64,000 bases of DNA, taken from an uncultured Gemmatimonadales bacterium. Lineage in GTDB: Bacteria; Gemmatimonadota; Gemmatimonadetes; Gemmatimonadales; GWC2-71-9. The position numbers were made by a program, and so were the translations under genes. Under the pieces are notes generated by a model. The model was not told the DNA's origin. It worked only from the letters and a program-made list of their open reading frames with translations, and did no database searches. This document shows, piece by piece, positions 11,035 to 44,812 of the stretch; position 1 is the first letter of the stretch; every line of letters begins with the position of its first letter. The stretch lies in assembly GCA_963779755.1 (NCBI GenBank), contig CAVZZO010000001.1, positions 636,044-700,043 of the forward strand. Direction: 5' to 3'.

Positions 11035-11160
11035 AAGGACCACCTCCTCCAGTCCCGAAATCATCTTACGAACCGCTACCGAATTCCACAACGTTGCCAA
11101 CGGCCCCGCCGCGAGCAGGCCCGGCGGGCTCCGCCGGCCGGGGTTGTCACGGCTGAGTAC
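11035..11160 (-). other. Relic D: degraded intI 3' end plus attI-like sequence
   Basis: On the minus strand it reads VLSRDNPGRRSPPGLL, compared with the intI C-terminus [16 protein letters not shown]. This is followed by GTTGTGGAATTC..GATGATTTCGGGA..GCAGGTCCAA, which is alignable with 54675..54763. The CTAAC crossover motif is missing. Confidence 0.45.
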
Positions 11161-11326
11161 GCTGCCCAGCCGCCCCGAGAGAAGGCAGGTAGAGCACAGA
11201 AGTATCGCATCAGACTCTGGCAAGTCTGCCGCGGGCGGGGAAGGTGGCTGGCGGGGATTCTTCATTTCAGTGACAGGCATGGCCGAGACACGGCTTCGGT
11301 CGAGAGGGGGATCCTGGCTCCAGTTC

Positions 11327-12238
11327 GAAAGGGCTGTCACCCTGAGGCCGCGCCAGCGGCCGAAGGGGCCGAAGCTGAAGGCTGGCTTCGGTCCCTTCGC
11401 TGCGCTCAGGGTGACCTAACCCCCGTCCCCCTTCCCGGTTGGGAAGGGGGGACCGGGGTGGCCAGTTCGGAGAGAAGATGGAACCGGGACGGGCGGTGCG
11501 AAAGGGCTGTCACCCTGAGGCCGCGCCAGCGGCCGAAGGGGCCGAAGCTGAAGGCTGGCTTCGGTCCCTTCGCTGCGCTCAGGGTGACCTAACCCCCTGT
11601 CCCCCTTCCCGGTTGGGAAGGGGGGACCGGGGTGGCCAGTTCGGAGAGAAGATGGAACCGGGACGGGCGGTGCGAAAGGGCTGTCACCCTGAGGCCGCGC
11701 CAGCGGCCGAAGGGGCCGAAGCTGAAGGCTGGCTTCGGTCCCTTCGCTGCGCTCAGGGTGACCTAACCCCCTGTCCCCCTTCCCGGTTGGGAAGGGGGGA
11801 CCGGGGTGGCCAGTTCGGAGAGAAGATGGAACCGGGACGGGCGGTGCGAAAGGGCTGTCACCCTGAGGCCGCGCCAGCGGCCGAAGGGGCCGAAGCTGAA
11901 GGCTGGCTTCGGTCCCTTCGCTGCGCTCAGGGTGACCTAACCCCCTGTCCCCCTTCCCGGTTGGGAAGGGGGGACCGGGGTGGCCAGTTCGGAGAGAAGA
12001 TGGAACCGGGACGGCCGGCTCGAAAGGGCTGTCACCCTGAGGCCGCGCCAGCGGCCGAAGGGACCGAAGCTGAAGGCATAATCTCGGCCCCTTCGCTGCG
12101 TTCAGGGTGACAATCCAGTGCGCCTCCGGCGCTCGCCGCGTATCGGCCAGCATCCCTGTCACCCTGAGGCCGCGCCAGCGGCCGAAGGGGCCGAAGCTGA
12201 AGGTACGGTTTCGGCCCCTTCGCTGTGCTCAGGGTGAC
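11327..12238. repeat. Tandem array 1: five copies of a 174-bp composite hairpin unit plus one extra hairpin
   Basis: Unit starts are at 11327, 11500, 11674, 11848 and 12022. Each unit contains an approximately 80-nt hairpin (GTCACCCTGAGG...CTCAGGGTGAC) and a second hairpin (CCCCTTCCC-GGTT-GGGAAGGGG). An extra hairpin copy lies at 12158..12238. Confidence 0.9.
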
Positions 12239-12284
12239 AATAAGCTCTGTCTCCGCGCCCGGCCCCTCTTGACAACGCCAGGCA

Positions 12285-12302
12285 GTTTGACGATCATCAA
12301 AC
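12285..12302. promoter_or_regulatory. Near-palindrome GTTTGACGATCATCAAAC directly upstream of arsR-family gene (candidate operator); TTGACA at 12269..12274
   Basis: An imperfect 18-bp inverted repeat ends 2 nt before the ATG at 12304. A -35-like TTGACA hexamer lies upstream. Confidence 0.3.
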
Positions 12303-12303
12303 C

Positions 12304-12612
12304 ATGACGACCCGGGCCGCCCCTCCAACCCTCACCAGCCGGCAATTCGAGCTGGTGGCCAAGGCACTCGCCGATCCCCGGCGCATGCAGCTGCTGGAGG
12401 CGATCTCGAGCACGCGGGAGTTTCCCTGTTCGCGCCTGTGCGAGCTGTTCCCCGTCTCCAAGGGGACGATCTCCCACCATATGAAGGAACTGCTGCGGGC
12501 CGGCCTGATCAACGCGCGGCGGGAAGGCCAGCATCTGCTCTACGAAGTGCGCCGGGAGACGCTGGATGCCTATACCAACGAATTGATGAGACGCCTGGGC
12601 CAGGCCGGGTAG
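12304..12612 (+). CDS. ArsR/SmtB-family transcriptional regulator
   Basis: wHTH signature LADPRRMQLLEAIS....SRLCELFPVSKGTISHHMKELLRAGLI. Confidence 0.85.
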   Translation: MTTRAAPPTLTSRQFELVAKALADPRRMQLLEAISSTREFPCSRLCELFPVSKGTISHHMKELLRAGLINARREGQHLLYEVRRETLDAYTNELMRRLGQAG

Positions 12613-12764
12613 GCCGCAGCAGGTGGGCTCTTTTTTTTAACTTAGTGTTTGATAGTTGTAAAACTGTTGTACAGCACGACCGGGCGAGGATGTCGATTTC
12701 GCGATCGCCCAAACGACGAAGAGAGGTAGTGCAGCCCAACACCCTGATGCACGAGGAGCCCCCC

Positions 12765-13874
12765 ATGCGTACCACTCCCCGGCTGAATACCCGCGGCTGG
12801 GCCGGACCCACGTTGCTCCTGGGCCTGATTGCCCTGACCGGCGGCGGACTTGCCGTCTGGAAGCACACTAGTCTCCGGCACGCCGAAGCAGTGGCGGCCG
12901 CGCAACCCGAACAGGTGCTGACGGTCACGTCGGCGGTGGCGGAGCAACGTCGGTACCGCGCCACCACCACCTCGATCGGCACCGTGCTGGCGCTCAACTC
13001 GGTCAGCCTGCGAAACGAGCTGGCCGGCACCGTCCGCGAGGTCCGGATGCGGCCGGGGCAGATCGTGGAGCCCGGCGCCCTGCTGGTCGCCCTCGACGTC
13101 TCCGTGGAGCAGGCCGAGCTGGATGCCGAGACCGCCGAAGCCAGGCTGGCGGAAACCACGCTGGCCCGGCTGGAGCGGCTGAGAAAGGTCCAGGCCACCT
13201 CGCAGGAAGAGGTGGACCAGGCGCGAGCGGCGCGGGACGTGGCCCAGGCGCAGATCGAACGGACCCGGGCCGTTATTGCCCGCAAGACCATCCGGGCGCC
13301 GTTCCGGGGCCGGGTCGGCCTGGCCGATATCCATCCCGGCCAGTACCTGAACGAGGGCACCGAGCTGACCACGCTGCAGGGGGTGGATGCGGCGGCGAAC
13401 GTGGACTTTACGGTGGCCCAGACGGTCGCCGCGGAACTGAGGCCGGGTCAGCCGGTCACGGTGATCCCCGCGGGAGATTCGTCATCGTCCCCGGTGACGG
13501 CCCGGATCGTCGCCATCGACGCCCAGGTGGATCCTACCACCCGGAATGCCGCGGTGCGGGCCCGAATCCCCGACCATGCCCCGGCCCCGGGAGCCTCGGT
13601 GCGGGTGGAAGTGCCGGTCGGTCCGCCGACCACGGTCGTGGGCATTCCGGTGAGTGCGCTGCGCCAGGGGCCCGGAGGCGACCACGTGTTCCTCCTCGCC
13701 GATACGGCGGGCCAGACGCGGGCGCATCTCCAGCCGGTGGTGAGCGGCCCGGTGACGGGCGATGAGGTGCTCATCCTGCGGGGGTTGCGGCCGGGACAGC
13801 GGGTCGCGACGTCCGGATCCTTCAAGCTGCGCGAATCGGCCCTGGTGGCCGTCGCCGGCGATTCCACCCGCTGA
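12765..13874 (+). CDS. RND efflux periplasmic adaptor (membrane fusion protein)
   Basis: Start trimmed to MRTTPRLNTRGW, with GAGGAG upstream. It has an N-terminal TM segment, a coiled-coil hairpin (EQAELDAETAEARLAE...), and the beta-barrel motif IRAPFRGRVGL. Confidence 0.85.
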   Translation: MRTTPRLNTRGWAGPTLLLGLIALTGGGLAVWKHTSLRHAEAVAAAQPEQVLTVTSAVAEQRRYRATTTSIGTVLALNSVSLRNELAGTVREVRMRPGQIVEPGALLVALDVSVEQAELDAETAEARLAETTLARLERLRKVQATSQEEVDQARAARDVAQAQIERTRAVIARKTIRAPFRGRVGLADIHPGQYLNEGTELTTLQGVDAAANVDFTVAQTVAAELRPGQPVTVIPAGDSSSSPVTARIVAIDAQVDPTTRNAAVRARIPDHAPAPGASVRVEVPVGPPTTVVGIPVSALRQGPGGDHVFLLADTAGQTRAHLQPVVSGPVTGDEVLILRGLRPGQRVATSGSFKLRESALVAVAGDSTR

Positions 13875-13885
13875 GGGAGGCCACC

Positions 13886-16800
13886 ATGCGCTCCTTCACG
13901 GACATCTTCATCCGGCACCCGGTGCTGGCGGCGGTGGTCAACCTGGTGATCGTGCTGGTGGGCTGGCGCGCCCTGACCACCCTGCCGGTCCAGCAGTACC
14001 CGAAGATCGAAAGTTCCTCGGTGGTGATCACCACGGTCTACTACGGCGCCAGCGCCGAGACGGTCCGCGGGTTCCTCACCACGCCGATCGAGCGGGCGGT
14101 CTCGGCCATCAGCGGTGTGGACTATGTCGAGTCCACCAGCCGGGCCGGGCTCAGCACCATCACCGTTCACCTCAAGCTGAACCACAACAGCACGGCGGCG
14201 CTGGCCGAAGTGACCGCCCGGCTGCAACAGGTCCGGGCCGAGCTGCCCGAGGAGGCGGAACCGCCGGTGGTCGAGGTGCAGCGGGCCGACCGGCCGTACG
14301 CTTCATTCTATCTGAGCTTCACCTCGAGCGAACGCGATATCCCGGCGCTCACCGACTGGCTCTCGCGGACCCTGCAGCCCCAGCTCAGCACCTTGCAGGG
14401 CGTGCAGCGGGTGGACGTGGTCGGCGGGCGGGCGATCGCCATGAGGATCTGGATCGACCCGGATCGTCTGGCCGCGCTCAATCTGGCGCCCGGCGACGTC
14501 TATGCCGCGTTGAAGCGGAACAATTATCTCGCCGCGGTGGGGCAGACCAAGGGCAACCTGGTCCAGATCAATCTCCTGGCCAACACCGACCTGCGCTCGG
14601 CCGGGGAGTTCAGGAATCTGATCGTGGCCGAGCGGAACGGGGCGGTGGTGCGGCTCTCCGACGTGGCCCGCGTGGAGCTGGGTTCGGAAGAGCCGGACAT
14701 GATCGCCAAGTTCAGCGGGAAGGAGGCGGTCTACCTAGGCGTCTGGCCGCTGGTGGGCAGCAACGAGATCGAGGTGGCGCACCGGCTGCAGGCCGAGATG
14801 GACCGCATCCGGCCGACGCTGCCCAAGGACATCGACATGGAGCTGGCGTACGACGCCACCGTCTTCATGCGAGACGCCCTGCACGAGATCACCAAGACCC
14901 TGGCCGAAACGGTCCTGATCGTCGGCCTGGTGGTGTTCCTCTTCATGGGGTCGGTGCGGACCGCGCTGGTCCCGCTCATCGCCATGCCGGTGTCGCTGGT
15001 GGGCGCGGCGATCGTGATGTGGGCGTTCGGCTTCAGCCTGAACCTCCTCACCATCCTGGCCATCGTCCTGTCGGTGGGCCTGGTGGTGGACGACGCCATC
15101 GTGGTGGTGGAGAACGTGGAACGGCACGTCCGGGAAGGCAAAACCCGGCTGCAGGCGGCCCTGGTCGGCGCCCGCGAGCTGCTCGGGCCCATCATCGCCA
15201 TGACGATTACGCTGGCGGCGGTGTACACCCCGATCGGTTTCCAGGGCGGCCTTACCGGCTCGCTGTTCCTCGAGTTTGCCATCACGCTGGCCGCCGCGGT
15301 GGTCGTGTCCGGCATCGTGGCCATCACCCTTTCGCCCGTCATGAGCTCCCGGCTGGTGCACCCGCGCGGGCGCGAGGGCCGGCTGACCGCCCTGGTGAAT
15401 CGCGGCTTCGAGGCGGTGCGCCGGCGCTACGAGAAGGTGCTGGACGGTGCGCTCCGGATGCGCTGGGCGGTGGTGGCCGCCGCCGTCCTGATCATGATCG
15501 GGGCGTGGCCGCTGTATCACTACTCCAAGCGGGAACTCGCGCCGATCGAGGACCAGAGCCATATCAGCCTCTTCATGCAGGCCGCGCCGGACGCCTCGCT
15601 GGCCGCGACCAACAAGGCCTCGCTCCAGGTGGTGAAGACGATCACCGCCTTCCCCGAGGCGAAGTTCATGTGGTCGCTGGTGGGGTCCTGGGGCGGATTC
15701 GGCGGCATGGTCGCGAAGAACTGGAAGGAACGGGACCGGACCACGCCCCAGATGTACGGGCAGGTCTACGGCGCCGTGTCGCAGATTCCCGGGCTGCAGG
15801 TCTTCCCCCGGCTGGACCCGCCGCTCCCCACGCCCGGCCAGTATGACGTGGAGCTGGTGCTGGAGAGCGATGCACCGCCCGAGCAGATGCTGCAGACGGC
15901 CAACGCGGTCATGGGTGCGGGCTGGCAGAGCGGGAAGTTCCTCTACGTGGACACCGACCTGAAGATGGATCTGCCGCAGGCTCGGGTGGTGATCGATCGT
16001 GACCAGGTCGCCGACCTGGGCCTCGACCTGGCCACCGTGGGCCGCGAGCTGGGAATCCTGCTGGGCGGCGGGTACGTCAACCGGTTCAACTATTTCGACC
16101 GGAGCTACAAGGTCATTCCCCAGATCGGCGACAAGGACCGCACGACGGTAGGGCCACTGCTCGATCTCAAGATCAAGACGCCCAGCGGCCGGCTGGTGCC
16201 GGTCTCGACCTTCACCCATATCGAGTCGAGCACGGCGCCCCGCACGCTCAACCGGTTCCAGCAGCGGAACGCGGTTCGCATCTTCGGCGGCGTGCAGCCG
16301 GGCGTCACCAAGGAAGAAGGGCTGCGCGTGCTGGAGAACGCCGCGCGGGCGGCGGGCGGGCCCGGCGTCTCGCTGGATTACGCCGGCGAGTCCCGCCAGA
16401 TCCGGCTGGAGGGCGGGACCCTGACGGTGACGCTGGGCTTTGCCGTGGTGCTCATCTACCTCGTGCTGGCGGCCCAGTTCAAGAGCTTCCGGGACCCGCT
16501 CATCGTGCTGGTGGGGTCGGTGCCGCTGGCCATCTCCGGCGCCCTGGTCTTCAGCTTTCTCGACCTGACGACGATCAACATCTACTCCCAGGTCGGCCTC
16601 ATCACCCTGGTGGGTCTGATCGCCAAGAACGGCATTCTGATCGTCCAGTTCGCCAATGCCCGCCAGGCGGAGGGCGTGGCCAAGCTGGCCGCGCTGCGGG
16701 AGGCCTCGCTCACGCGGCTGCGGCCGGTGCTCATGACCTCGGCGGCCACCGTGTTCGGCCACTTCCCCCTGGTGCTGGCCACCGGTCCGGGATCGGCGGC

Positions 16801-16978
16801 GCGGAACAGCATCGGCACCGTTCTGGTGGCCGGCATGACGGTGGGCACGCTCTTCACCCTGTTCGTGGTGCCGGTGTTCTACTCGCTCATCGCCGCGGAC
16901 CACGCCCCCGACCGCAGCGCGGCCGAGGAGCTGGTCCCGGTGGAACCCTCACTGGTGCAGGAGGCGGTCCATGCGTAG
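13886..16978 (+). CDS. RND efflux transporter permease (AcrB/HAE1-like)
   Basis: 1030 aa. N-terminus MRSFTDIFIRHPVLAAVVNLVIVLVGW. 12-TM architecture with VVDDAIVVVENV and two large periplasmic loops. Confidence 0.95.
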   Translation: MRSFTDIFIRHPVLAAVVNLVIVLVGWRALTTLPVQQYPKIESSSVVITTVYYGASAETVRGFLTTPIERAVSAISGVDYVESTSRAGLSTITVHLKLNHNSTAALAEVTARLQQVRAELPEEAEPPVVEVQRADRPYASFYLSFTSSERDIPALTDWLSRTLQPQLSTLQGVQRVDVVGGRAIAMRIWIDPDRLAALNLAPGDVYAALKRNNYLAAVGQTKGNLVQINLLANTDLRSAGEFRNLIVAERNGAVVRLSDVARVELGSEEPDMIAKFSGKEAVYLGVWPLVGSNEIEVAHRLQAEMDRIRPTLPKDIDMELAYDATVFMRDALHEITKTLAETVLIVGLVVFLFMGSVRTALVPLIAMPVSLVGAAIVMWAFGFSLNLLTILAIVLSVGLVVDDAIVVVENVERHVREGKTRLQAALVGARELLGPIIAMTITLAAVYTPIGFQGGLTGSLFLEFAITLAAAVVVSGIVAITLSPVMSSRLVHPRGREGRLTALVNRGFEAVRRRYEKVLDGALRMRWAVVAAAVLIMIGAWPLYHYSKRELAPIEDQSHISLFMQAAPDASLAATNKASLQVVKTITAFPEAKFMWSLVGSWGGFGGMVAKNWKERDRTTPQMYGQVYGAVSQIPGLQVFPRLDPPLPTPGQYDVELVLESDAPPEQMLQTANAVMGAGWQSGKFLYVDTDLKMDLPQARVVIDRDQVADLGLDLATVGRELGILLGGGYVNRFNYFDRSYKVIPQIGDKDRTTVGPLLDLKIKTPSGRLVPVSTFTHIESSTAPRTLNRFQQRNAVRIFGGVQPGVTKEEGLRVLENAARAAGGPGVSLDYAGESRQIRLEGGTLTVTLGFAVVLIYLVLAAQFKSFRDPLIVLVGSVPLAISGALVFSFLDLTTINIYSQVGLITLVGLIAKNGILIVQFANARQAEGVAKLAALREASLTRLRPVLMTSAATVFGHFPLVLATGPGSAARNSIGTVLVAGMTVGTLFTLFVVPVFYSLIAADHAPDRSAAEELVPVEPSLVQEAVHA

Positions 16979-18404
16979 CGCGCTGCTGCCGGTGTTCCTC
17001 GCGCTCTACGGATGCGCTTCGGCTCCGGCTTATCAACCGACCGCGGTGGCTCTCCCGCCCGCCTTTCAGGAAGCGCGGGTTCAAGACCGGCCGGCGCCGT
17101 ATGTGGCGATCCGGGACACCGTGCCGGGGGCGGCGGAGGCCCCCACTCCGACTCCCGTCGAGTACTGGCGGGAGCTGGGCGACACGACTCTGAGCCGGCT
17201 GGTGGAGGAGGTCGCGAACAGCAATCTCGATCTCGCCGCCGCCCGGTCGCGGGTGAGTGCCGAACGTTCGGAACGGAACCGGGCGCTCCTGGACCTCACG
17301 CCGTCGGCCACCTTCGCGGGCTCCTATTCCCGGCAGCGCCTTTCGGCCGCCGGGTTCCCCGGCGCCTCGGGCCCTTTCCCCGACCAGAACGTGTGGCAGG
17401 CGGGGTTCGACGCCTCGTGGGAGCTGGATGTGTTCGGCCGACTGCAACGATCGGTGCAGGCGCACGGCGCCCTGGTCGGGGCCGCGGAGGCAAGCCTGCG
17501 GGATGCCACGGTCTCCCTCACCGCCGAGTTGGCGCGGGCCTATTTCGAGCTGCGCGGAGCGCAGGAACAGCTGGCGGTCGCCCGGCGGAATGCGGAAAAC
17601 CAGCGTCAGACGATGCTGGTCGCCCAGGAACGGCTGGACGCCGGCCAGGGCACCGCGTTCGATACCGACCGGGCGCAGGCCCAGCTCAGCTCCACCCTGG
17701 CGTCCATCCCGGAGCGGGAGGCGCGGGTGGCCGCCGCGCAGTACCGGATCGGGGTTCTGGTCGGACGCTCGCCGACCGAGGTTGCGCGCGAGCTGGAGAC
17801 GCCGGCGGCGCTGCCGGCGCTGCCGGACGTCGTGCCGGTGGATAATCCCGATTCGGTGGTCCGGTACCGGCCCGATGTAGCGGCGGCGGAGCGGATGGCG
17901 GCGGCGCGCCACGCCCAGGTGGGCGCGGCCAAAGCCGAGTACCTCCCCCGGATCACCATCGGGGGAGCCGCCGGCTACTCTTCGGCCGCCTTCAACTCCC
18001 TCGGCAATGACGGCACCTTCCGGTACGCGGTCGGGCCGGTCATTACCTGGCCGGGACTCAACCTGGGCCGGGTGCGCGCCGCCGTGCAGACCTCCGAGGC
18101 CCAGGAAGAGGAGGCGCGCTCCGAGTATCGCCGCACGGTGCTCCAGGCCGTGCAGGAAATGGAAACGGCCCTGGCGAATTACCGGGCGGCGCGCCGGCGG
18201 GTGGCCCGGCTGGAGGAAGCCAGCGCCGCGAGCGGCCGCGCCGCCGACCTGGCGCGGTTGCGGTTCAAGGAAGGGGTCACCGATTTTCTCCAGGTGCTGG
18301 ACGCCGAGCGGACCCAGCTGGCCGCGGAGGACCTGCTGGCCCAGGGGCGGATCGACGCTGCCACCGCGTATGCCGCCCTGTATAAAGCGATGGGAGGGCG
18401 CTGA
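16971..18404 (+). CDS. Outer-membrane efflux lipoprotein (NodT/OprM family)
   Basis: Lipobox LALYGCAS, two TolC-like repeats, and an 8-nt overlap with the pump gene. Confidence 0.9.
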   Translation: MRSALLPVFLALYGCASAPAYQPTAVALPPAFQEARVQDRPAPYVAIRDTVPGAAEAPTPTPVEYWRELGDTTLSRLVEEVANSNLDLAAARSRVSAERSERNRALLDLTPSATFAGSYSRQRLSAAGFPGASGPFPDQNVWQAGFDASWELDVFGRLQRSVQAHGALVGAAEASLRDATVSLTAELARAYFELRGAQEQLAVARRNAENQRQTMLVAQERLDAGQGTAFDTDRAQAQLSSTLASIPEREARVAAAQYRIGVLVGRSPTEVARELETPAALPALPDVVPVDNPDSVVRYRPDVAAAERMAAARHAQVGAAKAEYLPRITIGGAAGYSSAAFNSLGNDGTFRYAVGPVITWPGLNLGRVRAAVQTSEAQEEEARSEYRRTVLQAVQEMETALANYRAARRRVARLEEASAASGRAADLARLRFKEGVTDFLQVLDAERTQLAAEDLLAQGRIDAATAYAALYKAMGGR

Positions 18405-18604
18405 GATGCGTCCACGCAGGGCTGATGTCTCCGGCAGCTGCCGGCAAGGGCATTCCGACCCCCGTCCATAAGACGGTGTACGTGGCGCTCAAACGGGAAG
18501 ACGAAAGGGCAGAGGCCGGGTCCATGGAACGATGGACCGGTGTCTCGGCGCCCAAAGCGACGGGTGAAGAGGTTCAGGTGCCGGACCCGGAGCGGACCCG
18601 GATG

Positions 18605-18991: not shown

Positions 18992-19130
18992 TCACCGCCT
19001 TCCCGCTCCCGGATCGGGGGCCGCGATAACCAGGAGGCCCTGGGTTTCTCCCGGCAGCGACCGAAGCTGGCGGAGGAAGCTCTCTTCGATCCGCGTTCCG
19101 AGCCGGCGTGCCGGTTCGCCCCTGCGCAAG
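18992..19130 (-). pseudogene. Fragment of a LAL/LuxR regulator paralog
   Basis: 19029..19099 matches 4482..4552 (inside the LAL gene) at 69 of 71 nt. The translation [31 protein letters not shown] has no flanking gene body. Confidence 0.6.
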
Positions 19131-21078: not shown

Positions 21079-21442
21079 AGTCTGCTCCTGACGGGAATCT
21101 CGTTGTCTCGCGGATGGGGTAAGCCGAATATGGCGTCGCGTGGGTTCGCAGCCAGAGGCCACCATGGACCCACAAGCCGGTACGTCCGTCTACTGCCCAA
21201 GCTAACCTGCCGCCCCGGAGTGAAGCGTAGGGGTGGTCAGGTTCATCGCCTTGTTGGGCGGTATGAAGCCGTGGCCGCCAGCACTGAAGTTGTGGGCTTC
21301 GCGATGGCTGACCGCCGCCCATTTTCTGGGAACCCGCGCTCGGAAGCCGGGCCGCCGGCCGGGCCAGCGGCTGAAGGGTTGGAGCTGAAGATATGGTTTC
21401 GGCCCCTTCGCTGCGCTCACGGCGATAACGTGCGTCCGGCGC

Positions 21443-26577: not shown

Positions 26578-26767
26578 GCCAGCACCTCTTCCGGTAGCTT
26601 GGACAGCTTTATCGCCCTCGCGCTTTCCCATGGCCATGTCCGCATCGTGCACAACCCGAGATCCGTCGTCGATCGTGATCGGGGATGCAGGCATTCCCGA
26701 CTTACACCACGGGCTGAGGAGAGCGGCCGCTCTGTTTGCTGCGCGCATGAGTGTCGACTCGCCGTCT

Positions 26768-26800
26768 GGCTAACGGCCTGCGTTTCAGCCGCGGCGGCGC
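26768..26800 (-). other. Half attC (core-side arm only)
   Basis: GGCTAACGGCCTGCGTTTCAGCCGCGGCGGCGC matches the left arm of the 140-bp attC family (GCCTAACGGTCTGCGTTTCAGCGGCGGCGCG). No partner arm or GTTAG was found to the right. Confidence 0.3.
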
Positions 26801-27070
26801 CGGAGCCCACCACCGCCGGCACGGCGCCTTGGCCGCCGGCCCCGGCACCTGGGCGGCGCGGGGTGGGGCTCAAAGCCCGGGTCCGCCGCGGGCGTCGTTT
26901 CCGGTCCGATTCGCGCCCCCCGCCAGCAGCGGAGGCCGGCCGGCCGGAGCTTTTGGTGAGCTTACTGCGGGGAGCCTGGGGTCGCTAGAGGGAAGCTGGC
27001 CCGGGGCAAAAACCTGGAGGCCGTTCCGGAGTCTCCCAAGAATCGGCGCGCGGAACCCGGTGGCTCGTGT

Positions 27071-27202
27071 GGCTAACAGGTATTGGACCTGCGTACCCAT
27101 CCCACTGAACCGCCGACCGACTAGAAATTATCTTACGGTCCGCAGCCTGATTCCACAACATCGCCGCGGAGGCTCGCCCAGGAGATCTGCCGGGCTCCGA
27201 AG
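27071..27202 (-). other. Relic B: intI 3' end (..[11 protein letters not shown]) plus attI-like sequence ending in GTTAGCC
   Basis: It aligns base-for-base with 54675..54800 (TTGGACCTGCGTACC...GAAATTATCTTACGGTCCGCAG..ATTCCACAACATC). The intI coding remnant is cut off by a GTCA..CTGA-type hairpin repeat at about 27203. Confidence 0.55.
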
Positions 27203-27295
27203 CGGCCGAAACTGAAGGCACGGTTCCGGCTCCTTCGCTCCGTTCAGGATGACAGCCCGTGCATCTTCCCGCCTTCCCGCACGACTAGCCCGCAC

Positions 27296-33540: not shown

Positions 33541-34039
33541 CTAGCCCGGAATCTCGCGGTTCGAGTAGTACGCGCGCCAGCCGGGAAAGTCGTGTGCGAT
33601 CCAGTGCTGGAGCGCCGCGTAGACTTTCCCGTAGTAGCCGCGTTCGCAGGCGGCCGGTGTGACCCACCAGCTGGCGTCCACATCGAGTCGAGAGTTCGGC
33701 GGTCAAGGGTGTGCGCCGGCCGAGGGGGTAGAGGTAGGCGCAGCCGAGGTATTCGCCGGCGGTCGTGTAGAGGGCGTAGCTGAACGAGTATTCCTCGCGG
33801 AACTCGCACTCGTGCCACATGAGGTCGACGAGGTCGTAGTCCTCGGTGACGGGCCCGGCGGGCCAGGGGCCGCCGCGCGTCTGCCGGATCAGGTCGAGGC
33901 TGGCATTGATCCCGCGCACGTCGTCTCTCAGGTGGGCGCGGGAAAGCGCCGTCGCCACCAGGTCCTCGTAGGTCAGCGTCCTCGGCGCCGCGCACCCGCG
34001 CGGCAAAACGAGCTTCTTGGTCAACGGTGTGTAATCCAT
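33541..34039 (-). pseudogene. GNAT-like acetyltransferase gene with a frameshift near 33690
   Basis: The N-terminal part is MDYTPLTKKL...AYLYPLGRRTPLTAELS in one frame. The convincing C-terminal part (LDVDASWWVTPAACERGYYGKVYAALQHWIAHDFPGWRAYYSNREIPG*) is in another frame. Confidence 0.6.
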
Positions 34040-34059
34040 GGCGGATGGTGCCTCTCCGG

Positions 34060-34704
34060 TCAGGGTCGCTCGAATTTGAGGTGTGTCACGCCCGGAGCCG
34101 GCACCGTCTGCACCAGCTCGAGCCCGTGCAGATCCGTGCCCACGTCGTCGAACAGCCGCTCGCCGCCGCCCAGCAGGATCGGCACGAGGTGCAGTTGCAT
34201 CTCGTCCACGAGCCCGGCCCTGAGATACTGCTGCGCCGCCTTCGCGCCTCCAGCGAGTGCGATGTCCATGTCTCCCGCCGCACGGCGTGCCTGCTCAAGC
34301 GCCGACTCGATGCCGTCCGTCACGAACCTGAACCTCGTTCCGCCTTCCATCGTAAGCGGCGCGCGCGGGTGATGCGTGAGCACGAACACGTGGTGGTGGA
34401 ACGGCGGGTTCTTCCCCCACCATCCCTGCCACGGCGATGTCGTGCTCCACGGCCCGGGATGCCCGCCGAACATGTTGCGCCCCATGATCGTCGCGCCGAT
34501 GTTCGCCAACTCTTCCTCGAAAACGGCCGAGTTTTCGTTCGCCACACCGCCCTGCTTTCCGTGTGCCGACAGCCAGGCGCTTAACTCGACCACCCAATCG
34601 TGCAGGCGCTCACCGCCCACCCCGAGCGGTTCCGCGAGGCTCTGGTTCGGACCGGCCACGAAGCCGTCCAGTGACAGCGAGATTCTGAAGCGCAGTCTGG
34701 ACAT
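34060..34704 (-). CDS. RibD C-terminal domain / dihydrofolate-reductase-like family protein
   Basis: Start trimmed to MSRLRFRISLSLDGFVAGP. MGRNMF, a GG..AAQQYL motif, and the fold-typical LHLVPILLGGGERLF are present. Confidence 0.85.
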   Translation of the reverse strand: MSRLRFRISLSLDGFVAGPNQSLAEPLGVGGERLHDWVVELSAWLSAHGKQGGVANENSAVFEEELANIGATIMGRNMFGGHPGPWSTTSPWQGWWGKNPPFHHHVFVLTHHPRAPLTMEGGTRFRFVTDGIESALEQARRAAGDMDIALAGGAKAAQQYLRAGLVDEMQLHLVPILLGGGERLFDDVGTDLHGLELVQTVPAPGVTHLKFERP

Positions 34705-34720
34705 GGGTACGCTCCTCGGA

Positions 34721-35644
34721 CTAGCGATCCTGCGGTGAGGTGCTCGGCGGGCCGTCTTCACCATTCAGGAACGGGAGCACGACCACCGGCACCAGCGGTG
34801 ACAGCGCCATCTCGTAGTGGGTGAGGTTGGGCAGGATCGCGAGCCGGTTCGGCGACATGTGCTCGCGCTGCCACCCTGCATCCCTCAGCCCGCCGCCCAG
34901 CAGCTGAAAGAAGCTCACGGCGTGCTCGGGGCGAATCATGTCGGCATCGCCGTACACCAGCATGACCGGGCCCTTGAGCCGCTTCACTTCTTCCGACCAG
35001 TCGTACGACCGGCGCATCCATTCGCCCATGCGATCGAGCAGTCTCGGGAAATCCTGAGGCCGGGGGGCGAGTGCCGCGTAGGATTGGTAGATCGGGGTCC
35101 CTTTCATCTGGTCGGCCATGGCGGCGCCCACCGCCGCCTGCTGGGGCAGCATCTCGGGATGGAACCCGCTCGTCGCGTAGGGCGTCGACACGAGCACCAG
35201 GCGCCGCACCATCTCCGGATGCTGGATCGCGAGCCGCAGGGCGATGCCACCGCCCATCGAGTAGCCGAGTACGTCAACCGTGTCGTACCCCGCCTGCCGC
35301 AGCACGCTGGCGATGTCGTCCGCCATGTCGCTGTAGTCAATCGGACGATCTCCCAGGGTCGTCCGGCCGTGGCCCTGGAGATCGACGGCGATGACCTGCC
35401 GTGCCCGGGCGAACTCCGGCAGGCCGGGCTCGAACAACCGGGTGGATCCCAGGCCACCATGGAGCAGGAGCAGCGGCGCCCCGCGGCCATGGATCTCATA
35501 GTAGTAGTTGACGCCGTTCGCCGGCGCGTACCCCGTGCGCACCGGCCTGGGGGCGGCGGCGGGGGCGGGTGCCGGTTGCTGGGCATTCGCGGTAGCCATG
35601 ATGAACGCTCCTGCGATCGCGAGTAGGGGGATTTTGGCCGGCAT
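34721..35644 (-). CDS. Secreted alpha/beta hydrolase
   Basis: Start trimmed to MPAKIPLLAIAGAFIMATANA. HGGLGS oxyanion region, GYSMGG nucleophile elbow, C-terminal THYE. Confidence 0.85.
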   Translation of the reverse strand: MPAKIPLLAIAGAFIMATANAQQPAPAPAAAPRPVRTGYAPANGVNYYYEIHGRGAPLLLLHGGLGSTRLFEPGLPEFARARQVIAVDLQGHGRTTLGDRPIDYSDMADDIASVLRQAGYDTVDVLGYSMGGGIALRLAIQHPEMVRRLVLVSTPYATSGFHPEMLPQQAAVGAAMADQMKGTPIYQSYAALAPRPQDFPRLLDRMGEWMRRSYDWSEEVKRLKGPVMLVYGDADMIRPEHAVSFFQLLGGGLRDAGWQREHMSPNRLAILPNLTHYEMALSPLVPVVVLPFLNGEDGPPSTSPQDR

Positions 35645-35915
35645 GCTCGGTGTCCGGTGGATGGTCCTGGAGTGGCTTGGCTTCCATGATACCGTCGATC
35701 CGGCGGTGCGAAAATCGACATGATCGGTACGGTAGAAGCGAACCACCCTGTCCTCTCCCGGCCCGAAGTCATTCTGCAGGGCCGGAGCTGATTTCGCCGG
35801 TCCACCTCCGCCTCACCCGGGAATCTGGAAAGTACCGTCGGGCAGGGAAGGTGGCTGGGCTGCTTCACTCCAGTGACAAGCCCCGGCCGAGACCCGGCTT
35901 CAGCCGAGGGCAAGA

Positions 35916-36353
35916 TTATCTGAGCTCCTGGGCGAGCCCGATCAGGATCCCTTCGGGACCCCGGATGTAGCACAGCCGGTAGATATCCTGGTACTGGACC
36001 ACCTGGCCGACCAGCTCCGCACCCCGCCGGCGGAGCCTGACGAGCGTCTCGTCGAGGTCGTCCACAGTGAACATGACGCGCAGGTAGCCGAGCGCGTTCA
36101 CCGGGGCGTTCCGGTGATCGGCGACGACGGGCGGGGTGAGGAATCGCGAAAGCTCGAGCCGACTGTGGCCGTCTGGGGTGACCAGCATGGCGATCTCGAC
36201 GCGCTGGGACCCCAGTCCGGTGACGCGCCCGGCCCACTCTCCTTCGATCGTGGCGCGCCCCTCGAGTGTCAGGCCGAGCTCGAGGAAGAATGGGATCGCG
36301 GCATCGAGGGATTCTACCACGATGCCTACGTTGTCCATCCGCTTGAGAGTCAT
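35916..36353 (-). CDS. VOC (glyoxalase/bleomycin-resistance) family protein
   Basis: MTLKRMDNVGIVVESLDAAIPFFLELGL..., 145 aa with two beta-alpha-beta-beta-beta modules. Confidence 0.85.
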   Translation of the reverse strand: MTLKRMDNVGIVVESLDAAIPFFLELGLTLEGRATIEGEWAGRVTGLGSQRVEIAMLVTPDGHSRLELSRFLTPPVVADHRNAPVNALGYLRVMFTVDDLDETLVRLRRRGAELVGQVVQYQDIYRLCYIRGPEGILIGLAQELR

Positions 36354-36495
36354 GTCATCCCCGCTTTATGACCGAAACGCCCGGCATGGCGTTTGTCATG
36401 GCGTCCAGAGTGTTCAGGGTCGGTTGCGCGGCGCGAGATGACGTATGACTCCAGGCGCAACCTGGCGCCGCGACAACTGCACCCGAATCTTTGCA

Positions 36496-37140
36496 TCACC
36501 GGCCAGGATTCCAGGTGCCACGATTGAGACCGGCTGTTCTACCGTCACTCAGTGTGCCCTGAGGTGCGGCCTGCAGCGAGCCGACGTGCCGGTAGGTGTT
36601 AAAGAGCACGCCCGTCGGCGTGGCCTTGGTACTGACGAGAGTGAGCGCGCGCGCGTCGACCCGGTCCGAGAAGAAGCATTTGCCCCGGCCCAGCAGGACC
36701 GGATAGACCAGCAGTACCACGTCGTCAACCAGTCCCTGTTCGAGCAGCGTCGATGTCAGGGTGGAGCTGCCCCAGAGAACGAGGTCCGGGCCGTCCTTCG
36801 ACTTGATGCGGCGCACGCCGGCGACGAGGTCCGGTCCAACGCCCTCGAAGGGGCCCCATTCAAGACTCTCCGGACGGTGGGTAGCGACATATTTCGTTGC
36901 CGCATTGAGGCCGTCCGCGAGCGGACTGCTTGGCGCCTTTGGCCAGAAGCGCGACCAGATATCGTAGGTGCGACGGCCAAGCAGCAGATCGAAGCTCGTT
37001 CCATGCGCGGCGACGATTGCGTCCCGGCCAGCCGGGGTCCGATAGGGCGCTTTCCAGTCGCCGTAGGGGAAGCCGTCCTCGCCGGAGGCCTGAATCACGC
37101 CGTCCAGCGAGATGTGTTCGATGATTCTGAGCCTTCTCAT
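36496..37140 (-). CDS. RibD C-terminal domain / dihydrofolate-reductase-like family protein
   Basis: MRRLRIIEHISLDGVIQ...LLLGRRTYD...LVLWGSSTL...LLVYPVLLGRG. Confidence 0.85.
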   Translation of the reverse strand: MRRLRIIEHISLDGVIQASGEDGFPYGDWKAPYRTPAGRDAIVAAHGTSFDLLLGRRTYDIWSRFWPKAPSSPLADGLNAATKYVATHRPESLEWGPFEGVGPDLVAGVRRIKSKDGPDLVLWGSSTLTSTLLEQGLVDDVVLLVYPVLLGRGKCFFSDRVDARALTLVSTKATPTGVLFNTYRHVGSLQAAPQGTLSDGRTAGLNRGTWNPGR

Positions 37141-37463
37141 GTGAGTCTCCGTCCGTGAGTTGAGGAACCTCCAACCCGACGACGAACGGAGCCTGCGGAA
37201 ATCGACACGCCGATTGGACCGGCCAGGACGGCTGAGGCTGCGTTACAGGGTGCGCCGACCGTCATGTACTCGACGTGGATGGTGGTGTCAGGTGCTGCCT
37301 GACGGCCTGCCCTCAGCGGCAGCAGCCTGATCGGTTCAACCAGCGAAGGCTGCCGCCCCGGCAGCTGGAAGCGCAGGTAGGGGGGGCTGAGCGCCCGCTG
37401 GGTTGCAGGGCCGACGAAGCCCAGGGTGGCGAGATCATACCCGGAAGCAACGGCGTGGCCGAA

Positions 37464-37601
37464 CCTACGTGAACGGGGAACGTGCGGGCATAGGCAGACT
37501 TTTCGTCGGGGGTCATGGCGCGGCTCCGGGTGGAGGGAATCACAGGAGTCGCGGAAGGAGCTACGGGCCGCGCAGCGGCGTCAAGCGGGTATAGATGTCT
37601 A
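37464..37601 (-). mobile_element. Truncated 5' end of the IS110/IS1111-like element, abutting an attC core GTTAGGC (37602..37608)
   Basis: 138 nt are identical to 50608..50745, including the start of the transposase (MTPDEKSAYARTFPVHVG). It ends at the same ...GATGTCTA|GTTAGG junction as the full copy. Confidence 0.75.
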
Positions 37602-37622
37602 GTTAGGCGGCAATGGTCAGCT

Positions 37623-38003
37623 TCAGGTCATCAAGGCCCGGATGTGCTGGCCGACCACAAGGAGTTGGTCCGAGTCCATTGACCCTAGGACGCGGCGGGC
37701 TACAGGCCCCATGAGGCGACGAATGCCGCCGAGACCCATCTTCGTAGTCTGTGAGGCGACGAGTCCGGCCTTCGCCTCCTGGACGGGCTTGAGGAAGTAG
37801 TAGTCCAGGCCAGTCTCGGTGAGATCGAGGACGATTTCTGCCAGTTGATCGCAATGGTTTGTCGCATCCTCGGCGGCCTCCAACGCGTCCAGCACTTTCA
37901 GCGTCTTGGTCCGGAGCGCTCTCGAGTAGTAGAAGCGGAGTGAGGGGAGACCTGGGGGCACGGCCTCCTCATGGGGTCCTGTCCGGTCGGCGGCGCGTTT
38001 CAT
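37623..38003 (-). CDS. Hypothetical protein (helical), cassette-like
   Basis: 126-aa ORF. Its stop lies 15 nt before the inverse-core GCCTAAC (minus-strand reading of 37602..37608). Confidence 0.5.
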   Translation of the reverse strand: MKRAADRTGPHEEAVPPGLPSLRFYYSRALRTKTLKVLDALEAAEDATNHCDQLAEIVLDLTETGLDYYFLKPVQEAKAGLVASQTTKMGLGGIRRLMGPVARRVLGSMDSDQLLVVGQHIRALMT

Positions 38004-38353
38004 GTAATCCCCACGAGGCTAGGGTAGGTGGCGGATCCGAGGCTCGCCTCAGCACTGGGTTCGACTCAGCACCGTCCCAGCCTGGAGGCTCGCTGGGCAC
38101 CCTCAGGTCGCAGAAGAGCCTTGCGCGGAAGGATATCGGGAGGGACATGAGCGAAGGATGAAGGCGCAAGGAAAAACGCTACGAGCTCGCCAGGTGCGTG
38201 TGGGAACATGGCCACCTATCGCTGCGGCAGCTCTGCTGCGGCGTTTTTCGGCAGCGCGGCGCGGTGCTGGCACGGCTGCACAGTGCGCCCCGTGGAGGAC
38301 TGGGCGACTGGATCGGTGTGCGCAGCCGAGCCAATTGCCGGCAATCCCACCGG

Positions 38354-38905
38354 TCAAAACACCACTGCCAAGGCCATGCCAATTCTGGCCCCCGCCAGTG
38401 GCCTCAGGCTGACCCGTAGGCGCTCGAGCGGGATCTCCTGCCAGCCCTCGGTCCGGATCAGCCCGCCGACAATGGCGCCCAGCCCGGCCCCAGCTACCCC
38501 TCCAAGAGCCGTCAGACCGATGCACTCGGCCGAGGCCATTGCGTCCTGATTCGCCGACTGATCGCAGGGGCTGGTGGAACCGCCTGTGTATAGCACGGCG
38601 GCCGCAACGCCTCCCCCGACCAGTAGGCCGATGCCAGCACCGAAAAGAGCGTGCGACTTGCGGCCCTGGCTAAGGTCAACCTGGTTCACAGACGCGAGCG
38701 AGACGCGCCAAGTATCCTTGCTGTCCTGGACCACAAGCGAGTCAGCCGTAAGTGCCACGAAAGTGCCGACGAAAGGGCTACCTGGCACGCTTGGTGCGAC
38801 AACCCGCACCCGGTCTCCGGCCTTCACGGCAGGTGCCTCCTGCGCTGCGACCGTAACGAGTGGGGCGACAACGAGGCCGATGACCATACGTGTGCGGAGG
38901 CGCAT
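38354..38905 (-). CDS. Secreted hypothetical protein with glycine-zipper hydrophobic region
   Basis: It has a signal peptide (MRLRTRMVIGLVVAPLVTVAAQ), a small beta domain, Gly-rich segments (GAGIGLLVGGGVAAAV and GGVAGAGLGAIVGG), and ends in F. Confidence 0.6.
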   Translation of the reverse strand: MRLRTRMVIGLVVAPLVTVAAQEAPAVKAGDRVRVVAPSVPGSPFVGTFVALTADSLVVQDSKDTWRVSLASVNQVDLSQGRKSHALFGAGIGLLVGGGVAAAVLYTGGSTSPCDQSANQDAMASAECIGLTALGGVAGAGLGAIVGGLIRTEGWQEIPLERLRVSLRPLAGARIGMALAVVF

Positions 38906-38942
38906 GGAGGGCCTCTTTCCCTGGGTGGATGCTCCTACCGCA

Positions 38943-39006
38943 GCCTAACGCTCGGGTTCAGTGGCGGGCCGCGCAGCGGACCGTTCGCTGCCACCCGTTG
39001 TTAGCC
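38943..39006 (-). other. Short attC site (64 bp)
   Basis: GCCTAAC...GTTAGCC with an imperfect internal palindrome. The stop codon of the upstream (minus-strand) gene lies inside GGCTAAC. The next ORF starts 37 nt after the core. Confidence 0.5.
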
Positions 39007-39561
39007 GCGCGTGCGCCGGTAGTGCATAGCGACTGCGCCGCTGCGGAGCGGATTGGCCGAGACCAGTTCGAGAAGTCGCGTGCTGGGCAGCCCGCTCTGG
39101 TACAGTGTCGGGCCATGGCCGGCGATCCTGGGGTGGACGAGGAACTGGTACTCGTCGATCAGATCCAGCCGGTCCAGCTCGGTCGCGAGCTTGCCGCTAC
39201 CGAGGAGCACGCCGGCAGGGGTCGCATCCTTGAGATTCTGCAGGCTCGTGCGTAAGTCACCGGCGATGTGGTGGCTGTTGGTCCACGGGAAGTCGGTTCG
39301 CGTCGACGACACCACGTACTTCGGCTTGGCCTCCAGCTTGACCGCCCACTCGCGCATCGCTGGCGGTGCCTCTTCGTCGCCGCGAGCGACCGCCGGCCAG
39401 TAGCCCTCCATCATCTCGTACGTGACGCGGCCCCACAGCATCGCCCCGCTCTCATCCATGAGGCTGGTGAAGAAAGCGTGTGTCTCGTGGTCGGCGATTC
39501 CCTCCTGGTGGTCGACGCAGCCGTCCAGGGTTACGTTGAGGCTGAAGGTTAGAAGTCCCAT
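39001..39561 (-). CDS. RibD C-terminal domain / dihydrofolate-reductase-like family protein
   Basis: MGLLTFSLNVTLDGCVD...MLWGRVTYE...VLLGSGKLA...FLVHPRIAGHG. Confidence 0.85.
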   Translation of the reverse strand: MGLLTFSLNVTLDGCVDHQEGIADHETHAFFTSLMDESGAMLWGRVTYEMMEGYWPAVARGDEEAPPAMREWAVKLEAKPKYVVSSTRTDFPWTNSHHIAGDLRTSLQNLKDATPAGVLLGSGKLATELDRLDLIDEYQFLVHPRIAGHGPTLYQSGLPSTRLLELVSANPLRSGAVAMHYRRTRG

Positions 39562-39685
39562 GCGATCTTACTCCGAGTTTGCCATCCCGCTGGATTGTCG
39601 CTTGTCGACGAGTACCTCGCTGCGGCTGACGCTCGACATCACCGGGCCGCCGGACTGAGCCTGCGGCTTTTTAGTAGGACTAAAA

Positions 39686-40719
39686 CTAGAGAATCCCGCT
39701 CTCCTTGAGCCAGTTCTCTACAAGCGAAGGCCACATCGCCACCGGATGTTCTGTGCGCCTCAGTCCGAAGGCGTGCCCGCCCTTGGTAAAGAGATGGACC
39801 TCTGCCGGGACGCCCGCATCATCAAGGGCGCGCGCGTAAACCGTGCTGTTGCAGATTTCGTCCACGGGGTCATCCCACGCCTGCAACAGGAACGTCGGCG
39901 GCGTCTGCGTTGTGACGTGTATGCCGGGGTCGAGGGTGGCACCATCGCGGCACAGGTGACCCGGGTAAAGCGCGACGGCGAAGTCAGGGCGGCTACTTAG
40001 TTTGTCTGCCGCATCCACCGGCTTGTATGTGGGCTCGAATATGTTGCTGGTCTGCGCGACCAGATAGCCGCCTGCCGAGAAGCCGATCACCCCAATCTTG
40101 TTGGGATCAAGGTTCAACTCCTTCGCCCTGGCGCGAACGAGCCTGATCGTTCTTTGCGCGTCCTGAAGTGCGCGGGGACCTTGGGTGTGATGTGGCAATG
40201 GCAATCCTTGTCCCAGTAGTGATTGCTTTTGGGAACGCGATACTTGAGCAAGACGCACGTGATGCCTTTGGCGGTCATCCAGTCACATATTTCAGTCCCT
40301 TCAAGGTCCATAGCCAAAAGCCGGAATCCGCCGCCGGGGAAAACCACCATTGACGCGCCGGTATTCCTGCCCACGGGTGGAAAGACCGTCATGGTCGGAG
40401 AAGTTACGTCATAGGCTGCGGTCCAAGGGCGCCCCGCGACGACATCCGGGGCTTTCGTGACTTCAACTCTCTCGGCCGGTTGAGAGACGCCTTCCATATC
40501 CGGCGCACCCTTCGGCCAGATCGGGATTTGTTCCAATCCTGAAGGCGGCTGCCAGACGCCGGCCTTCCCGACATCCGTTTGTTGCCGGTCTGATGTCGTC
40601 GGCCTAGTCGCTTGCGCCGGCTCGGCCCAAGGTTTGTGCATCACGGCGACGCCACCCGCCAAGCCCGACAACCCCAAGGCGCATAATAGGCATGAGCAAA
40701 GGTCGGCACACTATCGACT
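39686..40719 (-). pseudogene. Esterase (BD-FAE-like alpha/beta hydrolase) with at least 2 frameshifts
   Basis: AAGGAGG plus GTG at 40719 opens a signal-peptide frame. The body is split between the track ORFs 40114..40677 (..VVFPGGGFRLLAMDLEG..VLLKYRVP) and 39686..40258 (..GVIGFSAGGYLV..GGHAFG). The shifts are near 40680 and 40180. Confidence 0.65.
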
Positions 40720-40796
40720 CCTCCTTGACTCAACGGGCGTTGGCGGCGATTCCCGATGGTTCGCAAAAGAACGATCGCAAGGAAGGCTATTCCGCA

Positions 40797-40956
40797 GGCT
40801 AACGCAGATTGGACCTGCAGGAACCACGTCCCCCCCAGCCATCCCGAAATTATCTTAGGGGCCGCCACCTGAATTCACAACATTGCCAACCGGCCCCGCC
40901 GCCGGCAGGTCCGCCGGGCTCCGTATACCCTGGCCGCCACGGTTGAGGACGTGGGT
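40797..40956 (-). other. Relic C: intI 3' end ([17 protein letters not shown]) plus attI-like sequence ending in GTTAGCC
   Basis: It is alignable with 54675..54830. The coding remnant is truncated at 40957 by the TTCACTTCAGTGATAAGCC repeat. Confidence 0.6.
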
Positions 40957-44799: not shown

Positions 44800-44812
44800 G
44801 GACCGCACGATC

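Follow-up and report, generated by a model that had tools for sequence, protein, structure and literature searches.

Integrons of the inverted integron-integrase group, described in Treponema and other bacteria, carry the integrase gene intI in the same direction as the cassettes, with the attI site beside the 3' end of intI (PMC4889954). attC clusters that have no integron-integrase (CALINs) are abundant, intI loss being one proposed origin of these arrays, and 95% of them are without a recognizable intI pseudogene if more than 50% of the profile has to be covered (Cury et al., 2016, PMC4889954); their origin is therefore still an open question. Furthermore, there is good documentation of intI decay in the chromosomal integrons of Xanthomonas (PMC12444791), and attI-derived sites within arrays are known from class 1 and class 2 mobile integrons as ΔattI cassettes and attI1-ORF-attI1 units (ORF, open reading frame), where most ΔattI sites are fragments of 14-18 nt (one of 244 nt) that replace attC in short plasmid-borne arrays (Gonzales Machuca et al., 2026, PMC12901181, citing Partridge et al.). 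We analyzed a stretch of 64,000 nucleotides from an uncultured Gemmatimonadales bacterium (contig CAVZZO010000001.1, positions 636,044 to 700,043; hereafter the window), in which one intact integron is accompanied by three further copies (B, C, and D) of its attI region, each with a stub of intI. The evidence supports B, C, and D as relics of integron platforms minus the integrase, and we consider it probable that these paralogous copies derive from duplicated platforms whose integrase genes were then deleted. The locus differs from these known systems in that a live platform is backed, within one chromosome of a Gemmatimonadota-like lineage, by three full attI regions carrying integrase stubs; the literature searched contained no description of such a three-relic arrangement, which is not proof of absence.

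Compared with the inverted group, the window and the related loci L008, L012, L014, and L015 show the same layout, whereas the host lineage is Gemmatimonadota-like and three extra integrase-less heads are found here. As in CALINs and in the Xanthomonas decay, arrays outlive the integrase; unlike in CALINs, a trace of the origin survives and an attI with a promoter-like pair is retained. Since the 3' end of intI touches attI, origin by integrase loss is directly readable in this lineage. The remnants, of only 14-33 codons, fall short of the profile coverage used by Cury et al. (2016), so that screens of that kind would miss them. The relics further resemble ΔattI cassettes as attI-derived, co-oriented sites inside an array, recombination by IntI1 being a feature of the ΔattI systems, and differ from them in being full-length attI regions with integrase remnants, 14-16 kb apart, chromosomal, and without an attC boundary directly upstream; the definition of a ΔattI-type cassette, an ORF with attI or attC on its upstream side and a (Δ)attI in place of attC on its downstream side, does not describe B, C, or D, while it does describe a related metagenome unit (L030). 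Internal array promoters are also known, as ORF-less promoter cassettes and promoters of group IIC-attC introns (PMC3001079, PMC12444791). Like these, the relics might restart transcription deep in a long array, with the difference that the promoter would be the integron's own cassette promoter (Pc), inherited from a fossil platform and not from a cassette or intron.

Exactly four copies of one module (A, B, C, and D) were identified in the window, all on the minus strand, each consisting of about 90 bp of attI-type sequence with the 3' end of intI directly before it. Their coordinates are as follows (a slash marks the crossover):

54764..55765, minus: intact integron integrase gene intI, 333 aa from GTG or 325 aa from ATG at 55741
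54676..54763, minus: copy A, live attI region, core GCAGGTCCAATATTTG/TTAGC with the crossover G at 54681
54761-54756 and 54738-54733, minus: promoter-like pair of copy A, TTGTGG, 17-nt spacer, TAAGAT, read from the sequence
27071..27159, minus: copy B module, core GCAGGTCCAATACCTG/TTAGCC intact; TTGTGG 27158-27153, 17-nt spacer, TAAGAT 27135-27130
27160..27202, minus: copy B intI remnant, about 14 codons (10 matched residues plus about 4 codons)
40797..40880, minus: copy C module, core GCAGGTCCAATCTGCG/TTAGCC intact; TTGTGA 40880-40875, 17-nt spacer, TAAGAT 40857-40852
40881..40956, minus: copy C intI remnant, about 25-33 codons from the catalytic-tyrosine motif (tblastn E 8e-5)
11015..11092, minus: copy D module, core degenerate (GCAGGTCCAAGATGCGCCAGG), GTTAG lost; TTGTGG 11091-11086, 17-nt spacer, TAAGAT 11068-11063
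11093..11160, minus: copy D intI remnant, beginning VLSRDNPGRRSPPGLL, about 22 decayed codons read from the alignment

Across the whole window the pattern TTGGACCTGC-N20-45-GAAAT-N1-2-ATCTTA gave four matches, read on the plus strand at 11025, 27083, 40809, and 54687, with 0 expected by chance (100 shuffles), and the exact 10-mer TTGGACCTGC was confined to the four copies. In a self-BLASTN of the window, identity was 81% between A and B over 146 nt (E 6e-29), 77% between C and D over 150 nt (E 8e-21), and 74% between B and C over 78 nt (E 1e-5); moreover, an nhmmer profile of the module retrieved the four copies from the window, all minus, and no fifth. The three extra copies in one orientation, which the original prediction had announced from the letters, were thus borne out by pattern, BLASTN, and nhmmer. 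Its intI coding remnants in B, C, and D were recovered as well (by tblastn for C, and by alignment), as was the GTTAGCC core in B and C, which lies on the minus strand. For copy D the locus stood, but the start had to be moved from 11035 to about 11015, because TTGGACCTGC at 11025-11034 and the degenerate core precede 11035; D has GCCAGG where B and C have GTTAGCC. Likewise, the conserved blocks that had been listed are present, though as one-base variants in some copies: GAAATTATCTTA is exact in B and C only, A having GAAATTCATCTTA and D GAAATCATCTTA, and the third block reads ATTCACAAC in copy C. The relic remnants cover about 10-33 of the 325 intI residues and are recognizable only via the adjoining attI; none can encode an enzyme. 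In a tblastn search of the whole IntI against the window, no intI fragment appeared beyond the intact gene and the copy remnants.

The product of intI scores 425.5 bits against TIGR02249 (cutoff 265; profile positions 1-313 of 315) and aligns over its full length with VchIntIA of Vibrio cholerae (2A3V, E 1e-79). The catalytic motifs RHSFATHLL and IYTHV are present, and the closest IntI relatives bear Gemmatimonadota names. Copy A lies between the intI stop codon (54764-54766) and the first cassette, which begins at the G/TTAGC core about 83-85 nt from the stop. In this inverted layout, the minus strand carries intI, attI, the ORFs of the cassettes, and the top strand of each attC, and the cassettes run leftwards in window coordinates:

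44790..54675, minus: live cassette array, supported by attC alignment, consensus fold, and covariance model
54220-54361, 53765-53906, 51958-52097, 51503-51642, 48029-48175, 47264-47367, and 45354-45452: attC sites of this array

The seven aligned attC sites share a consensus hairpin whose 24 pairs include 9 with compensatory changes, and the bulged base lies in the plus-strand 3' half, which fits minus-strand cassettes. Two of the elements that define a complete integron, an integron-type tyrosine recombinase (IntI, with its specific insertion) and an array bounded by attC sites (imperfect palindromes RYYYAAC...GTTRRRY with conserved pairing and an extrahelical base), were accordingly found, and the third, an attI beside intI where the array starts, is assigned to copy A by position and conservation. 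For the fourth, a Pc directed into the cassettes, the candidate is a hexamer pair conserved across the lineage that scores below the threshold of a consensus scan. First attC scans, which combined box complementarity with duplex energy, were too strict or noisy (46 matches against 11-28 in shuffles) and were replaced by a covariance model (R1) built from the aligned window attC sites; this model still under-scores the 140-nt attC sites of the window.

The identity of the module as the attI of this lineage is supported by five relatives (L008, L012, L014, L015, and L017) encoding Gemmatimonadota-type IntI proteins 70-77% identical to that of the window. In these, the intI stop lies inside GGATTAGG and is followed by 55-75 nt, by (G)GTCCAATAYnnGTTAG, and then by genes on the same strand. 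The core GGTCCAATAYnnGTTAG is kept in all five relatives examined and in about 45 metagenome modules, and its presence at the same place identifies the module as the putative attI of the lineage. In related integrons the attC sites are co-oriented with the cassettes and score up to 53 bits with the window-built covariance model. The window copies share this core and have, in addition, blocks of their own (TAAGATnATTTC, GGAATTAG-type, and GGAAT(T/C)AG) that are absent from every relative retrieved.

In this context, the reading of the module as a chance resemblance, or as a generic dispersed repeat that has nothing to do with integrons, can practically be dismissed, even though the window is rich in other dispersed repeats. 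The original prediction had named low-complexity similarity and a generic repeat as the findings that would overturn it; both are contradicted by the zero chance expectation and by remnants that translate to the IntI C-terminus. Furthermore, every lineage copy ends in GTTAG and continues into unrelated sequence, often with attC sites, and a scan for the window-specific pattern in one genome per GTDB species returned only 7 chance matches (Blautia, Methanobrevibacter, and others).

Nearly all lineage members (window, relatives, and metagenome modules) also keep a TTGnnG-17 nt-TAnnnT pair, in which the first hexamer is TTGCCG, TTGTGG, or TTGTCG and the second is TAAGAT in the window and TACCGT, TAGCGT, TAACGT, or TATGAT elsewhere. 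Judging from its conservation and spacing, this pair looks like a sigma-70-type promoter reading into the cassettes. In those orphan modules that are eroded furthest, the first hexamer marks where the conserved unit begins on its left, and a promoter role would explain why the erosion of intI stops there. In one integrase-less family with six diverged versions, the promoter-like and docking unit is kept more faithfully than the adjoining remnant (84% identity in the module interior, anchor positions excluded, against 70% in the intI remnant), which is consistent with constraint on the module.

Integrase-less modules recur in nature. Contigs of JGI metagenomes were scanned for the lineage pattern GGATTAGG-N45-75-GTCCAATAYNNGTTA, which yielded 56 loci, including about 7 AT-rich chance matches, as expected from the information content of the pattern; L034, L048, L064, and L069-L072 were set aside as chance. 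Clustering left 34 distinct loci. No intI was found in 20 of them, with 0.3-11 kb of upstream sequence present (the doubtful L021 and L025/L029 are counted here); intI was intact or ran to the contig end in 7, was internally deleted in 1, and could not be judged in the remaining 6, which were too short. The deleted gene (L018, L043, L052, and L056) was seen in four metagenome samples and lacks residues ~65-228, with an intact-looking attI module adjoining. In the integrase-less loci, intI homology ends 0-130 nt upstream of the stop codon (290 nt upstream in one cluster), and their translations contain decayed IntI C-termini (e.g., L041). In a multiple alignment, conservation sets in abruptly at CTTGCCGGATTAGG, within contexts that are otherwise unrelated, and lasts up to GTT; beyond this point each locus has a different sequence. 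Co-oriented attC sites were detected downstream of the orphan modules L019, L021, L026, L029, L037, L038, and L041, and also on the upstream side of L029 and L030, so that units of this kind occur at the head of arrays as well as inside them. Moreover, two contigs carry two modules each, in tandem (L067) or head to head (L036). Two further differences from the known systems are the excess of integrase-less heads over complete ones in the metagenome sample of this lineage and the sharp boundaries of the retained unit, which fall at a promoter-like pair and at the crossover; the hexamer pair and the metagenome excess had been missed by the earlier reading of the sequence. The ratio of 20 integrase-less to 7 integrase-linked loci suggests that integrase loss is the rule, not the exception, in this lineage, and the frequency of such relics in environmental DNA suggests that the docking site is useful without an enzyme of its own.

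Several integrase-less loci (L022, L026, L030, L033, L040, L045, L062, L063, and L073) share a unit of ~420 bp whose flanks differ on both sides. It comprises a terminator hairpin, an opposite-strand tRNA-Ile-like 3' fragment that ARAGORN does not call, several GCCGTCATTT-type iterons, a remnant of 41 intI codons, and the attI module; together, the tRNA fragment and the iterons resemble an integrative-element junction.

Regarding the origin of the extra copies, module identities are 83% for A-B, 74% for C-D, and ~63% between the AB and CD types, all outside modules being at most 60% identical. The modules group as ((A,B),(C,D)), and no outside module comes as close to any of them as they come to one another, which argues for paralogs and against separate imports. 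Acquisition of four integrons from different donors, set side by side and three of them later deprived of the integrase, is thus very unlikely: the AB and CD types are ~37% different and the C/D-type remnants imply a longer IntI C-terminus (…AAGPVGNVVN…) than that of A, but the four copies share the window-specific blocks TAAGATnATTTC and GGAAT(T/C)AG, absent from every relative retrieved, are mutual nearest neighbors, and lie in one orientation within 44 kb. The homology between A and B passes the crossover, covers ~17 nt of the first cassette, and is found again where that cassette ends in its attC, so that contiguous duplication of the intI 3' end, attI, and cassette fits better than a clean site-specific insertion. 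Duplication of the platform followed by integrase loss, which had been put forward from the sequence alone, is supported by these observations, and separate acquisition is disfavored. The order D, B, C, A, together with the tree and the spacings of 16.0 and 13.9 kb, would also fit duplication of a block of two modules, weakly suggested given that the chance of such interleaving is 1/3.

A number of observations weigh against this account of duplication and decay. No paralogy at gene level speaks for a large block duplication, an all-against-all BLASTP of the ORFs giving repeats only, and the helix-turn-helix (HTH) genes beside C and D are just 27% identical. The remnants of C and D are ~74% identical, which equals the identity of their modules and indicates no excess constraint for this pair in the window. 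Their truncation junctions differ, so that either the truncations were independent or the junctions were remodeled. A sigma-70 consensus scan of the four copies, which also covered terminators, called no promoter, only 7-8 of 12 positions matching. Finally, the copy count and the single intI are those of the 64-kb window, and further copies or a second intI may lie elsewhere in the genome.

The original prediction had described the coding remnant of B as cut by a hairpin repeat and that of C by another repeat, and both junctions proved to be as described. At B, the upstream end of the remnant joins the right half of an 86-nt GTCACCCTGAGG hairpin repeat (27203-27276), and at C it directly abuts a CTTCACTTCAGTGA element (40955-41013). 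About 100 nt upstream of the D remnant lies a CTTCATTTCAGTGA element (11262-11312), followed by a 174-bp repeat array (11323-12245). Since the truncations end in dispersed repeats, they point to repeat-mediated deletion of redundant intI genes. The two repeats are distributed as follows:

11323-12245 and 42116-42919, with single copies at 21345, 33264, and 44255 and a half copy at 27203-27276: 86-nt hairpin repeat, CTGTCACCCTGAGG...CTCAGGGTGAC
11262-11312, 22508, 35883, 40955-41013, 42960-43007, and 44414-44461: dispersed element of ~50 nt, CTTCACTTCAGTGA-N-GCCGAGACnCGGCTTCAGCCGAGG, six copies

The hairpin repeat often occurs in 174-bp tandem units with a second hairpin (CCCCCTTCCC-GGTT-GGGAAGGGGG) and has no Rfam match. 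Two of the CTTCACTTCAGTGA elements stand just upstream of plus-strand genes (an ArsR-type HTH gene at ~43040 and the ORF at 44489); the element may serve as promoter or leader, or else represent a small piece of mobile DNA. Rfam and tRNA searches found no known RNA in the window or the related units.

Taken in sequence, the events could have been these. Old duplications of the intI 3' end, attI, and first cassette would have produced paralogous platforms, from which redundant integrase genes would have been removed by deletions ending in dispersed repeats (the 86-nt hairpin at B, CTTCACTTCAGTGA at C and near D). Erosion would have halted at the edge of a still useful unit, the promoter-like pair plus attI, leaving 14-33 non-functional intI codons. 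The attI region (GGTCCAAT-N4-6-G/TTAGC) probably also carries an outward promoter (TTGTGG, 17 nt, TAAGAT) into the cassettes. B and C, in which every lineage-conserved determinant is kept, could serve as internal promoters and in principle as docking sites for IntI in trans, and D, without the GTT crossover core, would be a promoter at most.

Behind each copy come accessory genes on the minus strand and an attC site or what is left of one, with many sites behind A, one of 54 bits behind C, one of 14 bits behind B, and a weak one behind D. The units behind C and B are delimited as follows:

38938..39012, minus: attC closing the first cassette unit behind C, 54.3 bits, E 2.5e-11, the best covariance-model match in the window
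26763..27072, minus: decayed first cassette behind B, 310 bp, homologous to the first cassette of array A

The first unit behind C contains a RibD_C gene (39001-39561) and an alpha/beta-hydrolase fragment (Pfam), and an R'' box lies farther on at 37602; behind B and D only degenerate attC sites were detected. A CALIN is defined by at least two attC sites and no integrase in the vicinity. In the cassette behind B, the 5' end (27056-27072) and the R' side of its attC (26755-26796) are homologous to the first cassette of A, BLASTN matching 27056-27199 to 54659-54799. The degenerate attC itself (26763-26840) reaches 14.2 bits (E 0.26) with the covariance model, its R' side being conserved. Behind D, two SnoaL genes and a doubtful attC remnant near 10282-10366 were found.

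Between 26 and 54.7 kb the minus strand carries nearly all credible genes, which are of accessory kinds often found in cassettes, including glyoxalase, two RibD_C, ABM monooxygenase, alpha/beta hydrolases, DUF1801/OmdA, penicillin amidase, and a trypsin-like protease. The much larger, partly fossil array envisaged in the original prediction holds for part of this span; however, covariance-model searches of the window placed strong attC sites only within 38.9-54.4 kb, and 12.3-18.4 kb, between D and B, is occupied by a plus-strand ArsR-MFP-RND-OMF efflux operon rather than by cassettes.

Whether the relics are still used bears on a second reading, that of a multi-headed integron in which B and C are working secondary attI sites served in trans by the single IntI, giving several entry points, each with its own promoter. 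We regard this as possible, though doubtful. In B and C, GGTCCAAT, GTTAGC, and a GGCTGCGG-like box are intact, and an intact attC of the same family lies behind C. In the metagenomes, L022/L026/L030/L040/L045/L062/L063 share their intI truncation junction, yet at least seven loci differ after G/TT, the change starting exactly at the crossover, which suggests that these sites recombined after the loss of the integrase; part of this flank diversity could instead reflect movement of the unit or assembly chimeras at the repeat. Furthermore, IntI1 acts in vivo on ΔattI sites and on attI1 duplicates that lie within class 1 and class 2 arrays, recombining them (PMC12901181). On the other hand, the first cassette behind B is a decayed homolog of the first-cassette family of A and is still first, so that no insertion has persisted there since the duplication, and D is without GTTAG. 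The first live cassette is present as an exact tandem duplicate of 460 bp (53767-54226 = 54222-54681), a sign of recent activity at A; this is the only cassette duplication with 100% identity and the sole sign of such activity, and it is found at A. As far as these sequence patterns can tell, current use of B or C in trans is therefore rather unlikely.

A third reading treats the module as the 3' end of a unit composed of attC, cargo, and ΔintI-attI, excised and reinserted by IntI as an attI-type cassette, which would account for the shared orientation without segmental duplication. All copies are indeed co-oriented with the array, in L030 and L062 an attC R' end (GTTAGGC / GTCAGGC) lies a short way before the shared unit, whose other end is the attI crossover, and IntI1 is known to excise and insert ΔattI-type cassettes and attI1-ORF-attI1 units (PMC12901181). 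In the window, however, B, C, and D have neither attC nor attI directly upstream; on that side they are flanked by dispersed repeats, plus-strand operons, and a gene for penicillin amidase. Moreover, the A-B homology spans the crossover, so that a clean site-specific insertion would need the same cassette to have been later inserted at both sites. We judge this reading improbable, more so than use in trans. In the metagenome family with the shared truncation junction, the left flanks differ as well, the unit of L030 coming just behind an attC end; the family thus reflects either an exchange of cassettes at the orphan site or transfer of the whole unit as an attC-to-attI cassette, each of which requires an integrase in trans.

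Beyond platform duplication and decay, it is conceivable, although we lean against it, that the ~95-bp promoter plus attI unit of inverted-type integrons is autonomous and selectively maintained, outliving its integrase, recombining in trans, and recurring within one locus. If so, multi-headed arrays would have several cassette entry points and transcription restarts, and many environmental integrase-less arrays would be active capture sites and not dead ends. Relics working in trans would give long chromosomal arrays several insertion points and internal promoters, which bears on the expression of distal cassettes and on array growth; inactive relics would still make the window a clear case, and one that can be dated, of how platforms duplicate and decay in a phylum with little-studied integrons.

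Some minor features of the locus and its relatives were also recorded. A third copy of the first live cassette, 84% identical, lies 2.3 kb further on (51505-51967) and holds a 153-aa ORF without a Pfam match. Two transposase genes are located in the live array:

52197-53150, plus: IS30-like transposase (HTH_38 + rve, Pfam), between two attC sites and opposite to the cassettes
49231-50493, minus: IS110-family transposase (DEDD_Tnp_IS110 + Transposase_20, Pfam), inside the live array

The 144 bp upstream of the IS110-family gene (50608-50751) are 100% identical to 37464-37607, behind copy C; both 144-bp copies end at an attC R'' box, and weaker similarity at the protein level reaches ~37316. The region and its second site look like an attC-targeting insertion sequence (IS1111-attC-like) plus a truncated second copy. 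The 144-bp repeat was considered as an attC and rejected, as it does not fold back and holds the start of an ORF upstream of the transposase. In L014, an IS91-type transposase and a second tyrosine recombinase follow directly after the first cassette on the opposite strand (11774-13896). Upstream of the integrase side of the window locus, three tandem repeats of ~173 bp with the motif CTGCGTAATCTGCGTAATCTGCGG were identified at 59717-60230. In addition, a 94-nt stretch at 4462-4555, within the gene of an AAA/LuxR regulator (2516-5350, minus), is 94% identical to 19009-19102, 14.5 kb away, and is probably a gene fragment.

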